Shown: positions 661 through 58,976, counted from the first letter of the stretch. The stretch: DNA of 64,000 nt from Octopus vulgaris (GCA_951406725.2 OX597822.1:47368001-47432000); one strand, 5' to 3'. The notes: generated by a model from the letters alone, not told the origin. Program-made: numbers and translations.

Positions 661-903
661 TGTATAAGCTAAATAAAATGAAATAACAAAGCCAAGGACA
701 TTTATAGGAGATTTACAAAGAGAAAAGTTGTCTTACAGCTGTTTCAGAGATATAAAGGATATCCCATCATCAGAGATGATATGAGAGAGTTAAGTAGAAG
801 GAAATAGTAGAGTTCAATATATCCTTGAAACAGCTGTATATAAATGTCCTAGAAATTTTACACTGCCTTGGTTTTGTTGTCTCATTTTATATAGCATATA
901 CAC
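661..903. repeat. Degenerate fold-back element containing a hammerhead-like motif
   Basis: tgtataagctaaataaaatgaaataacaaagccaagg (661-697) is an imperfect reverse complement of ccttggttttgttgtctcattttatatagcatataca (866-902). An inner acagctgtttca/tgaaacagctgt pair is also present. Confidence 0.6.
731..776 (-). ncRNA. Minimal hammerhead ribozyme-like motif (Penelope-type)
   Basis: Minus strand: TCT-CTGATGA-T-GGGATAT-ccttt-ATATCTC-T-GAAAC-AGCT-GTA-AGA. Canonical core, helix II, palindromic helix III loop and GUA triplet. Confidence 0.55.
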
Positions 904-3614
904 GCTTCAACGCCAAACACGATGCGTGCTCTAAGGATGGAAGGTGTTGGAGTCGCGAGAGAGGCCCGGGTGGCGGAGGCGCAGCAGGGCAACAAAGCCA
1001 CCATTGGGTCTCTGGTAGACGAACAAGGGCGCGAATTGCTCGATCCCAGCAAGATGTACGAGGCATTTCAGCGGCACTTTGCCCGACTGTACGGGACGAG
1101 TGGCGAGCGTGAACGTGGACTTCAGTGCCTACCTGCACAGCCTGCCACAAATCTTGGCAAGAGAGGCAGAGTGCTGCGAAGGTGCCATCACGGCGGCGGA
1201 TGTGCTGGACGCAATGGCAGAATGCTCGAGAGACAAATCGCCGGGTTTGGATGGTCTGCCCTCCGAGTTTTACAATTGTATGCCAGACTTGTTTGGAGAC
1301 GTCTTGGCAGCGGTATACTGCAACTGGCAGCAAAACGGTAGCATACCCGGTTTTGTGAGTCGAGGAGCCGTGACGCTGCTGAAGAAAGATCCAAACAAGG
1401 GGGACATTATAGACAACTTTAGGCCCATCACTCTGCTCAATGCAGACCTGAAAATTTTGACAAAGGTGTTAGCCAAGAGGTTGGCGCTTGTCATCGAGAA
1501 ACTGGTCGACAAGGCGCAAACGTGTGCCGTGCCGGGCCGGAGCATCCATGACAACCTCCATCTGATGCGCTACATCATAGACAGAGTAGTTAAGGAACCT
1601 GGCATGGGTGGGGCCCTGATCAATTTGGATCAATCGAAAGCTTTCGATAGGGTAGACCATCGATACTTTGAGGCAGTCCTGAGAGCGGCTGGTTTCGGTC
1701 CCGTCTTCCGCGGCTGGATAGCTGCCTTGTACAGAGGTATCCGTTCGGTAATTCGCGTAAATGGACATCTATCGAGACCTTTCGACATTGCACGTTCGGT
1801 CCGTCAGGGATGCCCCCTCTCGTCACTTCTATACGTATTGACTCTCGAGCCACTACTGCGGAAGCTGGCGATTCTGAGGGGCATCCCGCGAGAATTGGGA
1901 TGCGGGACGAGCGTGTCTGCATACGTGGACGACGTCACCGTTATAGTGTCAAGCCACGAGCACATCGAACTGGTCGGCGAGACACTGAAAGACTACGAAG
2001 CGGTGACAGGAGCGAAAATCAACCGGGAAAAGTCAGTGGGCTTGCGGCTCGGCACCTGGAGAAGCAAGCCCATGCCGTCCACCAGCATCTCCGTCGTGGG
2101 ACGCTGGACGGACGGCCCGATTGAGTTGCTCGGAGTCTGGTTCGGTCCGGAGAAGAACTGGAACGAGATAACGAGTAGAGTGGTCACTCTCGCTCGGCAA
2201 TGGGCTGAGAGGAAACTGTCCCTAAAAGGTCGGGCGGAGGTGGCGAACACGTACATCGCGTCCATCATCTACTACCGCCTGACCGTTGTACCTTGTCCCG
2301 ACCCTACCATCACCAAACTAGAACGCATTCTCTTTCGCTTCTTGTGGAAAGGATGCGTCCCGATGGTCAGGCGATCCATTTGCTGTCAACACCCGTTAAA
2401 AGGAGGGCTGGGCATGCCGTGGTTGATGATGCGCAGACACGCGCTGACACTGCGACATCTCCGGCTCTACGTAGACGACAGTGAACAGGTGTGGTCGCCG
2501 TTTGTGAGGCACGCTTTCCCGCAACTCGTCTCCATGACAGAACTGCAGTCGTGGATCAAAAAGAGGCCGAGGAAGGGCGAATGGCACCGCGAGTGTCGCG
2601 TTGCTCTCAAGCAACTATGCCGTCCCGGGTTGACCTTGAATGACTTCAACACAACCCAAGGATTCTATAGGGGATTAGTGGAGGGGAGGTACGACGACGA
2701 TCTTAGGGCGAACCTGGACGTCGACGAGGAATACCTGACCCGCCTGTTTGAGACGACTTTCGGGCCGGGACCTATGGACAACTTCCAGAGATCCCTGGCC
2801 TGGCAGTGCTACCGAGAAGCGCTACCCGTTCGGGATAAGCTCTATAGGCATGACTCGAGAAATACGGGGCCGACCTGCCCGAGGTGCGGGCAGAGCGACG
2901 AAACAGTTCTGCACGCAATCGTGCAGTGTCCAACAATCTCCGACCTGTGGGCTTATGTCGAACGACTGCTGTCATGTGTGGGACGTGTCGGTTTATCAGC
3001 CGAGTCTATCGTTAATATCGTTACACCTTCTCCCTTCAAACGGGAAGGAAGAGCTATTTTTATCATACTTGTGGCTATGACGCGCCTGAAAGGATTAGAG
3101 ACAAACACTTTCCTCTCTGGTCAAACTCTCATCAACTTCTTCAAGTATCACTTCAAGAGGAAAGTGAGAATAGAGAGGCAAGTTTTGTCTAGTGAATGTT
3201 TTAAAAAGAGATGGGTGAATGTAGCAAGGATGGCACGTATGAATGACGAAGCCACCTTGACTATGATCCTATGATGCGTAAAAATTAATACAGAGAGTTG
3301 CCTATCTGTAAAAAAAAATATAACATGTGACTTCATTGACCGAGGTTACCTTGGTCTTTTCCGTAGGCTTTTCTTTCCACGGGTAAACCTCACCTGTCCT
3401 CCTCTTTACACTTTATATTGACATTGATAACGATCCCTATTAATCGATTTTTTCTTTTCCTCTTAATTTTATCCCCCTCCCTTTTTTGCTTTCCTCTTTC
3501 TTTCCTTTTACGATCCCTTTCGATCGAAAGCCAACCCCCTTTCTTTATCCCCCAAAAGAAAAGCTCTACCTTGTAATTTGTCCCGTCTGTGTGGCTAATA
3601 AAGAAACAAGAAAC
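904..3614 (+). mobile_element. 5'-truncated non-LTR retrotransposon, L1/Tx1 clade
   Basis: GC-rich island carrying the RT ORF, a T-rich 3' UTR, and an end aataaagaaacaagaaac directly followed by (TA)n. No endonuclease domain is present. Confidence 0.9.
1079..3274 (+). CDS. LINE ORF2 fragment: reverse transcriptase plus C-terminal Cys/His zinc-binding domain
   Basis: Motifs KSPGLDG, FRPITLLNADLKIL, LDQSKAFDRVDH, VRQGCPLS, YVDD and CPRC..ETVLHAIVQC. The upstream linker (ORF 922-1341, ..YEAFQRHFARLY..) is in another frame, implying a frameshift near 1100. Confidence 0.88.
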   Translation: MPDCTGRVASVNVDFSAYLHSLPQILAREAECCEGAITAADVLDAMAECSRDKSPGLDGLPSEFYNCMPDLFGDVLAAVYCNWQQNGSIPGFVSRGAVTLLKKDPNKGDIIDNFRPITLLNADLKILTKVLAKRLALVIEKLVDKAQTCAVPGRSIHDNLHLMRYIIDRVVKEPGMGGALINLDQSKAFDRVDHRYFEAVLRAAGFGPVFRGWIAALYRGIRSVIRVNGHLSRPFDIARSVRQGCPLSSLLYVLTLEPLLRKLAILRGIPRELGCGTSVSAYVDDVTVIVSSHEHIELVGETLKDYEAVTGAKINREKSVGLRLGTWRSKPMPSTSISVVGRWTDGPIELLGVWFGPEKNWNEITSRVVTLARQWAERKLSLKGRAEVANTYIASIIYYRLTVVPCPDPTITKLERILFRFLWKGCVPMVRRSICCQHPLKGGLGMPWLMMRRHALTLRHLRLYVDDSEQVWSPFVRHAFPQLVSMTELQSWIKKRPRKGEWHRECRVALKQLCRPGLTLNDFNTTQGFYRGLVEGRYDDDLRANLDVDEEYLTRLFETTFGPGPMDNFQRSLAWQCYREALPVRDKLYRHDSRNTGPTCPRCGQSDETVLHAIVQCPTISDLWAYVERLLSCVGRVGLSAESIVNIVTPSPFKREGRAIFIILVAMTRLKGLETNTFLSGQTLINFFKYHFKRKVRIERQVLSSECFKKRWVNVARMARMNDEATLTMIL

Positions 3615-3615
3615 A

Positions 3616-57353: not shown

Positions 57354-58870
57354 CTTTAGATGCACCTCCAGACATGTAAGCGATAAAACATCGTGGGTTT
57401 CGCCAGAGAGGATTGACCATTGAAGAGTGAAGTCTTTTCTGGCTCTGAAGAGGAAGCAGTCAGATCCTCGTTCATAGCGAGACCTTACATTTGTGATGAC
57501 ATTGGGAGCTTCTGTTTAGCGGCGTAGCTAAGGTGTGTGAGTGTCGCCACTCCTGCTCCTCCACTCCCTAATACAGACTTATACGACAGGCCCAAAAGTG
57601 CCATCCCCCATACAAGTATCGCTATCGTCCCCACCCAGCTACGCTTCTGGTTTTAGCTCCCAATTGTCTATATTTGGAGACGGTGGTAGGTGGTGTGCTA
57701 TATTTGCGTCTTTTTGCTGTTGAAAGAGACAAGATTGTCATGACCATATTGGAGCAGGTGTATAAAGTTTCTCTTCCTGCTGTCATAACAGGCTAGACAT
57801 GATGTATCTAGGTTGTATGTGGATGATACATGGGCGTTGAAAGTCATGGAGGAGTAAAGAGTGGTATTAACTGTATGGGGAAGTAGAAGTTGGCGTAGTT
57901 GGAGGTGATGGCAAGTCGCCGTTGAAGGGAAAACCGAGCTCTGAGGTACGCAAGAGTTGGTAGAGTTGCTGAGAGAGCAAGAGAGGCTGTGCGTGTGTAT
58001 GTGAGAGGAAAAATGAGAGAGAGAGAAAAAAAAAACGAGCTCTGTCAACTCATGACGCGATGGTGTAATCTAACAGGAGCCGTTAATCTAAGTTACAAGA
58101 GACATATGGAGCTCACACAGGCGGACATATTCACGCGTCAAACATGGCCGAATGTCTGGTTGACATAAAGAGCAGTAACTACACTGTTTTCATGAAATTT
58201 TTCGTAAGCGAGTAATCCTCTGGTGAGTGATATAGAATAGTAGGTACCCAGTAGTTCTAGCTTTACGAAAATCATACAAGTTGTCGTTAAGGAGAGAAGG
58301 AGAGAGATTCACCGCTTTTGATAAGGTTTTAATCATCTTGCTGCAAGTGTACGGAGACTATAGATAGAAGGGGTTGACGGATTGGCTTTTTTATGTGAAT
58401 CAGAAACACTGCAGCCTACTGCAAAAGACGGGGGTTACACTTCTTTATCTTTCGTCCTTCTAGGTGTATCTTAGCCGAGTTATATTCCTATAGTACATCT
58501 TCAATGTGAATGGAGGTATAGAATTGTACTTGTCCGGCAGTAGACTTAATCTGAGCTCGCGTATCAAAGAAGGAGATGAGGTACAAAGCAATGACGTTGT
58601 AGAAATCTTTCTATTTCACTTACATCGAAGAGCTTTCCTGATACAATACATTAATATTTATCACAAAATATATCATGCGTATTTTTTAAATTGGTCCCAC
58701 AATTACGATTATGTAATTGTGAAAGACTCACATACCACGTCCACGCGAAGTGCGGAAACCACAGCCCTAATAATGCCCCTACAATTACCCATATTGTGCC
58801 AGGTATTCTTTTAAAAATTAACATAAGCATTACATTTGTCTATACCAATCTCACTCTGGATATATATTAA

Positions 58871-58976
58871 TATTTAGCAGAAGCAACAGAAGGGCGAAAG
58901 TTTCATCAAATTGGTTTGATAAGTGCCATGCACGAAACTTTCGGCTCTTGAGTCACTTTGCTGCTTCTGTTAAATA
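58871..58976 (+). repeat. Small fold-back element with a U3-A8 hammerhead-like motif
   Basis: Arms tatttagcagaagca / tgcttctgttaaata. Inside: ggt-TTGATAA-GTGC-cat-GCAC-GAA-ACT..AGT-C-act. Confidence 0.5.

Follow-up and report, generated by a model that had tools for sequence, protein, structure and literature searches.

Hammerhead-bearing fold-backs in a stretch of octopus DNA as probable dead insertions of Penelope-like end modules

Penelope-like elements (PLEs) are the closest described carriers of the architecture considered here. Minimal hammerhead ribozymes of PLEs have an extra base after A9, a G10.1-C11.1 pair, a palindromic helix III, and a short helix I; most are single, and some form pairs 100 to 700 bp apart on opposite strands (PMC4209133). 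Almost all families of the Hydra clade of PLEs target (TA)n, and one hammerhead-bearing, (TA)n-targeting member of the clade is already known from an octopus (PMC8557442). For endonuclease-positive (EN+) PLEs, insertions with an inverted 5′-truncated partner, a one-sided tail, junction palindromes, and microsatellite targets have been described (PMC3846280). With purified PAc protein, the two strands of the target are both cut and extended, and reverse transcription starts internally, downstream of the hammerhead; cleavage by the hammerhead is dispensable, and C3G/G8C is an engineered partial rescue (PMC11167929). The combination of a fold-back with a minimal hammerhead is already known from print (PMC4209133, PMC8557442, PMC3846280). 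Here, we compare with these systems a stretch of 64,000 nucleotides from Octopus vulgaris (OX597822.1:47368001-47432000; "the window" is this whole stretch, and positions are counted from its first letter), in which an earlier note had seen four fold-back elements and four stand-alone motifs with hammerhead-like parses.

We read the four fold-backs as dead insertions of the hammerhead-bearing end modules (pseudo-long terminal repeats [pLTRs]) of several Penelope-like families, with each fold-back having arisen once, during insertion; we put the probability of this reading at about 0.8. The inverted repeats are indeed present at 661-903, 5208-5446, 17201-17400, and 58871-58976, where the earlier note had placed them, and their parts are as follows (hammerhead position numbering is used throughout).

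661-903, minus strand: element 1, an old head-to-head pair of a hammerhead-bearing copy and an inverted partner starting inside helix II
729-778, minus strand: minimal type I hammerhead of element 1, C3 at 773, score 14.0
5208-5347, minus strand: hammerhead-bearing copy of element 2, a very abundant end module
5282-5331, minus strand: minimal type I hammerhead of element 2, G3 at 5324 and C8 at 5319
5348-5452, plus strand: inverted partner of element 2, starting at position 1.1, as would the 3′ product of the predicted cleavage
17201-17400, plus strand: element 3, a young head-to-head pair whose two arms each contain a hammerhead core
17301-17361, plus strand: hammerhead of element 3, canonical CUGAAGA core, C3 at 17306, score 15.2
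17136-17200, minus strand: putative 3′ tail of the inverted copy of element 3, a one-sided 65-nt segment ending on (AT)19
58871-58976, plus strand: element 4, a decayed pair with a U3-A8 core at 58916

None of 200 shuffles folded as well as any of the four (z = −8.9, −23.0, −26.4, and −7.0 for elements 1 to 4). Self-BLAST revealed no dispersed similarity among them, in agreement with their described lack of relatedness; local inverted repeats were listed for elements 1 to 3, not for element 4. A hammerhead parse had been claimed for each fold-back, and elements 1 to 3 do contain full minimal type I motifs, whereas in that of element 4 a 4-bp helix II and GAAAC are accompanied by poor helices III and I, and its partner apparently lacks helix II. 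In element 1, whose arms are ~76% identical with indels, a canonical CUGAUGA core is combined with a U·U mismatch at the base of helix II, A at N17, a palindromic helix III (ACAGCTGT), and a helix I with three of five pairs. The motif of element 2 has the extra base 9a, a 5-bp helix II, the palindrome AATATT, U at N17 (5289), and a perfect 7-bp helix I. The complete copy of element 2 begins 23 nt upstream of core position 3, where other copies show a splice-acceptor-like boundary, and its partner starts twice, through a 17-nt tandem duplication (5348-5380). Element 3 has a palindromic GGGCCC at the junction and (TA)29 on its right; in its motif, helix III is ACTC-G-GAGT, N17 is U, and four of five pairs form in helix I. 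It probably extends to 17136, the 65-nt one-sided segment being the likely tail of the inverted copy.

Like the minimal hammerheads of PLEs in PMC4209133, the window motifs are of type I with a palindromic helix III, a base after A9, a G10.1-C11.1 pair, a short helix I, and often U at N17; they occur mostly as solo copies, with opposite-strand pairs and a U3-A8 variant. The one supplement file of that paper that was searched contains no octopus example. With the Hydra clade (PMC8557442), they share (TA)n targeting, a hammerhead near the 3′ end, a 4-bp stem III with a loop of 0 to 3 nt, a mismatch at the base of stem II, and the octopus as host, and an inverted 5′-truncated copy is also described there for Penelope-13_HM. 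In style of hammerhead, elements 1 and 3 resemble this clade: by eye, the mismatch at the base of helix II and the ACAG/CTGT stem III of element 1 recur in its published table, and the ACTC-N-GAGT stem III of element 3 is that of Hydra-2_aMil and Penelope-16_HM. Element 3 also has the first 13 letters of core and helix II in common with Hydra-1_oBim of Octopus bimaculoides; no window element looks like Hydra-1_oBim itself, however, as the flanks differ by eye. When five window motifs were compared with the supplement of PMC8557442, one matched a coral element and the other four matched nothing. The head-to-head pLTR insertions of PMC3846280 are similar in geometry, shorter partner, one-sided tail, junction palindrome, and AT-rich targets, but here the whole insertion is an end module of 100 to 260 nt, and the tail of element 3 has 65 nt rather than 30 to 40. 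An inverted 5′-truncated partner, a variable junction (seen for element 2 only), and an optional 3′ tail are thus shared with EN+ PLEs, and so is insertion into (TA)n, as in Hydra, Neptune, and Naiad. An internal start of reverse transcription downstream of the hammerhead would be common to these elements and PAc (PMC11167929). Animal retrozymes without long terminal repeats (LTRs) are likewise non-coding, with a type I hammerhead and many monomers (PMC7229834; bioRxiv 10.64898/2026.07.22.740005), and are, like the window elements, probably mobilised by PLE proteins; unlike these elements, they are described with head-to-tail tandem arrays, canonical hammerheads, and circular RNAs (PMC7229834). 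No head-to-tail hammerhead array is present among the 77 tandem repeats listed in the window, and tandem retrozymes were dismissed.

How a fold-back relates to its family can be seen for element 2 in public sequencing runs. Half or more of the sampled words of element 2 occur in 20 listed runs, which come from 12 studies and carry seven coded organism labels, and seven of the 20 may derive from the source of the window DNA. Contigs of four runs were aligned to 5205-5365 at 80% likeness and numbered 10966, 5378, 3290, and 916, respectively; the summed depth of such contigs does not equal copy number. In run X11, the arm and the hammerhead have a summed depth of 1 to 4 million, compared to only 165 and 33 at 5355-5365, and across the same junction it is 0 to 19 in the other three runs. 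Since this is the level of single contigs, the junction of element 2 in the window is its own. Among the joints listed for other copies of the family, seven are of opposite strands; their partner ends are 5242, 5249, 5261, 5269, 5288, 5290, and 5301, and each has its second end in the interval 5342-5349. The near-single-copy junction and the different places of the joints argue that the amplified unit is a linear module and that inversion is specific to each copy. Of the earlier reading, the presence of Penelope-type minimal hammerheads in non-coding repeats close to (TA)n is supported, with at least one very abundant family, whereas fold-backs as replicating families are not supported for element 2, since its other listed copies invert elsewhere.

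It is quite unlikely that each fold-back is a non-autonomous family in its own right, with hairpin units that are transcribed, processed by their hammerhead, and inserted anew, even though four independent fold-backs occur in 64 kb with a hammerhead-like core at or near the centre of all of them, non-autonomous PLE derivatives have been described in print, and the joint of 5249 to 5349 recurs in three runs. The depth of this recurring joint (59, 8, and 2) is that of a single locus, as from one shared locus; the other copies of element 2 listed do not repeat its junction; and the geometries of the four fold-backs differ. Furthermore, one of the helices I and II is predicted to be lost on folding back: the pair probability of helix I of element 2 is 0.00 in the fold-back versus 0.96 in the linear copy, and that of helix II of element 3 is 0.00 versus 0.90. 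Because the hammerhead is predicted to be lost in the fold-back transcript, the fold-back loci are probably inert as ribozymes.

Other features of the family are seen in the same runs. Loose ends extend it past 5208, as an optional tail would, and ~16 to 20 nt past 5347, where a branch-point-like motif, a pyrimidine run, and AG resemble a splice acceptor. Penelope of D. virilis is described with a pLTR intron that ends at helix I, and a splice acceptor at the 5′ boundary of element 2 is a lead. A head-to-tail joint of 5304 to 5210 occurs at low depth in three runs, and hence partial tandems exist in the family. In run X8, possibly an RNA run, an excess of A-to-G changes lies in loop II together with other changes; it fits a mixture of subfamilies and is not claimed as RNA editing.

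The core of element 2 carries G3-C8, which sets it apart from the hammerheads of PMC4209133, where U3-A8 is the sole 3-8 covariation given in the part available. The pair is kept in at least 98% of the aligned depth in the four runs, and in all four, other letters stay below 2% at 5314-5347 and 5287-5298. G3 and C8 recur in the loose-end consensus of a second subfamily, in which loop II is replaced while stems and core are unchanged, and one joint insert has a change at the free position 7 and retains the pair. G3-C8 is therefore a family state, being invariant in all runs and present in the loop-II subfamily. A change of A1.3 to G (17, 9, 7, and 8% of depth in the four runs) keeps a G·U pair. 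In the parts available of PMC3884650, PMC8495972, PMC3088659, and PMC11014351, G3-C8 is engineered only and U3-A8 is natural, and no natural G3-C8 hammerhead was found in the literature covered, which does not include the survey of Lunse et al. 2017 and one supplement file of PMC4209133. A search for octopus together with Penelope and hammerhead or inverted repeat returned nothing on these families. Hence, the G3-C8 core would be a natural variant that goes modestly beyond the published U3-A8, in a hammerhead for which cleavage is a prediction.

Stand-alone motifs had also been reported at 5906, 9137, 17551, and 24936, and a further module was detected around 46600, in addition to the eight motifs named earlier.

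5907-5955, minus strand: solo motif (5906), U3·G8 core, 7-bp helix II, palindrome ACGATCGT, score 12.5
9138-9182, minus strand: solo decayed motif (9137), canonical core, near-palindromic helix III, score 9.5
17458-17620, minus strand: end-module copy (17551) abutting (TA)29, hammerhead-like with a deviant core
24936-25080, plus strand: end-module copy (24936), canonical core, 5-bp helix I, broken helix II
46530-46681, minus strand: further decayed copy of the 17551 family (46600), between microsatellites in an intron of CYB561

The four stand-alone motifs fared differently: 5906 is strong, apart from its U3·G8 core and a helix I with three of five pairs, and 9137 is moderate, whereas 24936 has lost helix II and 17551 has no core TGA. 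The core of 17551 reads CTGTAGC (U at position 6 and C at position 9) and hence lacks NTGANNA; a 4-bp helix II, an ACGT palindrome, and a 4-bp helix I accompany it. The 24936 copy also has an ACGT palindrome, and its score of 7.5 lies within the noise of the first relaxed descriptor described below. The copies at 17551, 24936, and 46600 align as related modules, the last in the same orientation as CYB561. On the minus strand, U replaces A at core position 6 in both the 17551 copy (17582) and the 46600 copy (~46645), and two copies suggest a family-level A6U variant. Like element 2, the 17551 family looks closer to the generic minimal hammerhead type. Across the window, a Watson-Crick 3-8 pair together with core, GAAA, and UH is present in elements 1, 2 (G3-C8), 3, and 4 (U3-A8) and in 9137 and 24936, not in 5906 (U3·G8) or 17551. 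Helix III is palindromic in elements 1, 2, and 3 and in 5906, 17551, and 24936, has one mismatch in 9137, and is not palindromic in element 4; the predicted self-duplex energies are −0.2 (element 2), −9.7 (element 3), and −10.0 kcal/mol (5906).

Whether such motifs exceed chance depends on the descriptor. The first descriptor was written before any tuning, and the relaxed versions after candidates had been seen. With the strict CUGANGA core, one match faces a shuffle mean of 0.15, and 9 of 60 shuffles reach as high, so that the excess over shuffles that might be expected from the earlier note does not appear here; it does appear when 3-8 swaps or a relaxed core are allowed, with one full match (element 2) against a mean of 0.00 to 0.02 for the pre-tuning descriptor. 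Elements 1 and 3 escaped this descriptor, which called for pairing at the base of helix II and for an even palindrome; conversely, it alone, and neither relaxed version, recovered the parse of element 4. With a first relaxed version, the window has seven matches at scores of at least 9 (shuffle mean of 0.64, 0 of 200 shuffles as high), and neither the reversed nor the complemented window has any at 8 or above. With a second one, it has four at scores of at least 12 (mean of 0.01, 0 of 300), and five of the eight named motifs score at least 9. Extra matches at 7599, 21641, 17888, 32665, 50597, 9266, and 39168 (scores of 7.5 to 9) lie within or near the shuffle noise and were discarded.

These counts bear on the possibility that the elements are miniature inverted-repeat transposable elements (MITEs) or foldback DNA transposons and the parses chance matches of a permissive pattern. 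The elements are short, non-coding, and bounded by inverted repeats in a TA context; the strict descriptor gives no excess; element 4, 17551, and 24936 are individually weak; and the window does contain a MITE-like element at 59987-60301. That element, however, has a 9-nt flanking repeat and no parse, while for elements 1 to 4 no target-site duplication is readable and the junction of element 2 is near single-copy. Four motifs at scores of at least 12 are hard to reconcile with a shuffle mean of 0.01, and the element 2 family has variable junctions and ragged ends. Its loop II is replaced while stems and core stay, and the A1.3-to-G change (7 to 17% of depth) leaves a G·U pair. We consider this explanation highly improbable overall, and for elements 1 to 3, it is largely refuted.

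The TA-rich setting given in the earlier note is clearest for elements 2 and 3, which are flanked by (TA)n on both sides; element 1 has only an imperfect TA/TG tract, and element 4 lies 144 nt away. Five of nine motifs (the eight named ones and 46600) have a tract of (TA)5 or longer within 100 nt, compared to 17.5% of random sites (P = 0.011), and seven of nine have one within 150 nt (P = 0.0005). Long tracts of this kind could be fragile, and linear hammerhead repeats might have been inserted singly and have gained the inverted arm later, by snap-back repair or replication errors. The long (TA)n tracts beside elements 2 and 3 would suit such a history, as would the near identity of the arms of element 2, which differ at 1 of ~82 positions, and the tandem duplication of 17 nt at its junction. 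The arms end at the element ends, though, and take in no flanking unique DNA, the same geometry is described for PLEs generally, and the inverted partner extends further 3′ than the complete copy, by 6 nt in element 2 and 65 nt in element 3. Such a DNA-level origin is unlikely. The same overhang disfavours a snap-back copy of a single complementary DNA (cDNA); self-priming as proposed in PMC3846280 is a possible alternative.

In our model, which joins these observations to the known PLE systems, a Penelope reverse transcriptase (RT)/GIY-YIG protein encoded elsewhere would nick an AT-rich or (TA)n target on its two strands. Reverse transcription might then be primed from each end on element RNA, ~80 to 150 nt downstream of the hammerhead, and the two short cDNAs, each ending by run-off in the hammerhead region or at its edge, would be joined head to head. 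Such twin priming would yield an inverted repeat with the 3′ ends of the element as its outer ends and with the complete motif in one copy and a shorter piece in the other, the longer tail sometimes being on the shorter inverted piece. The clustered 5′ boundary is compatible with two kinds of template, namely, full-length PLE RNAs copied at their 5′ ends and transcripts of non-autonomous mini-elements. The linear RNA could act as a slow ribozyme, assisted by a protein or by dimer formation via the palindromic helix III, whereas in a fold-back transcript the hammerhead would be buried in the duplex.

The model leaves room for a bolder claim, namely, that the G3-C8 hammerhead of the element 2 family cuts in vivo and that the cut is recorded in the genome. 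Complete copies would then start at a fixed splice-acceptor-like point, and the fold-back would join the cDNA of an uncut RNA to the cDNA of the cleaved 3′ product. In addition to the partner of element 2 itself, two of the seven other listed joints, at 5288 and 5290, are beside the predicted cut 5289/5288 (P of ~0.013 if joints were uniform). However, the hypothesis was drawn from the element 2 locus itself, the numbers are small, joint positions are good to ±1 to 2 nt, and in elements 1, 3, and 4, the partner begins elsewhere than at the cut site. We regard in vivo cleavage as doubtful.

Several points weigh against the reading of the fold-backs as dead Penelope-like insertions. Target-site duplications are unreadable in TA tracts, family-level evidence comes from element 2 only, run X11 may be the source of the window DNA, and the positions of opposite-strand joints are those listed only. 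The loose-end consensus behind the splice-acceptor reading agrees at 0.49 to 0.52 in three runs and at 0.98 in the fourth, where it has 7 records. No double compensatory change was seen in the helices of the element 2 family; in helix II, the variants (2 to 5% in X11) are transitions at CpG sites, some of which break pairs; and 5208-5249 is as invariant as the core (no variant of at least 2%). With the family also being young, an unchanged core says little about selection. The more striking counts over shuffles were obtained with descriptors that had been adjusted once matches were known; the relaxations agree with features independently listed for Hydra-clade hammerheads, which limits the concern of overfitting without removing it. 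Rfam contributed one sub-threshold match to its hammerhead families (CL00010), Hammerhead_1 on element 3 (12.6 bits, E of 2.1, gathering threshold of 34), with none for elements 1 and 2 or for 9137; for the whole window, no hammerhead is among the best 150 of 215 Rfam matches, in which microsatellite-driven miRNA noise appears. Finally, no PLE RT or endonuclease could be linked to any module, either in the window frames or in exact-pattern scans of sequence collections. Exact patterns for element 2, element 3, and the 17551 family had 0 matches in five scans of viral and genome contig collections, and the sole metagenome match, in a bacterial coding region, was set aside as chance.

The coding search covered 483 stop-free, non-low-complexity frames of at least 48 aa in the window, compared with Pfam. 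As the earlier note had stated, no Penelope RT or GIY-YIG open reading frame (ORF) was found among them: there was no GIY-YIG match, although short or degraded remnants would escape, and the RT matches are pieces of the long interspersed nuclear element (LINE) and LTR types only. RT pieces at 1019-3271 and 22670-23752 were read as LINE-type, and there is also an LTR-type RNase H fragment. By eye, the ATG frames beside the hammerheads of elements 1 to 3 close within ~20 codons, and the start of a PAc-like ORF was not seen.

43228-43530, 45022-45258, and 46903-47199, minus strand: exons of the cytochrome b561 gene, by similarity to CYB561 of O. bimaculoides

The exon tested is 88% identical to the O. 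bimaculoides protein, and the host is therefore an octopus relative by the window's own coding DNA. A 5′-truncated LINE, presumably L1/Tx1-like, with an open frame of 751 aa (RVT_1 and zf-RVT) occupies 904-3600 (plus strand), starts at the edge of element 1, and ends near a (TA)n tract. A second LINE RT at 22670-24317 (plus strand) is, we assume, CR1-like. The LTR-type RNase H fragment (9200-9475, plus strand) adjoins the 9137 motif. We take the transposon remnants at 13995-14763 (minus strand) to be Tc1/mariner-like pieces and the remnant at 16777-17082 (plus strand) to be an RTE-like 3′ end. Adjoining (TA)n tracts at 17098-17620 carry this RTE-like end, element 3, and the 17551 module one after another, which suggests that the same microsatellite was targeted repeatedly. 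Short dispersed repeats, which we assume to be like short interspersed nuclear elements (SINEs), are dense, for example, at 15103-15284, 18228-18468, 37354-38265, and 58976-59106, and a truncated copy of a dispersed repeat abuts the right end of element 4. The fifth fold-back, at 59987-60301, has 83-nt arms (93% identical) and an AT-rich interior, contains no hammerhead parse, and lies between direct repeats of 9 nt that differ at one position; it looks like an ordinary MITE and shows what a MITE looks like in this window.

For annotation, our reading means that short hairpin repeats in octopus (TA)n tracts would be Penelope end modules, not MITEs. A family with a G3-C8 core would escape CUGANGA descriptors, and it offers a natural test of the engineered partial-rescue swap. 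Since the junction is unique to each fold-back, mapping junctions throughout the genome could reveal whether the RNA templates of reverse transcription are cut by Penelope hammerheads; if in vivo cleavage were true, thousands of junctions would be a readout of Penelope ribozyme activity.

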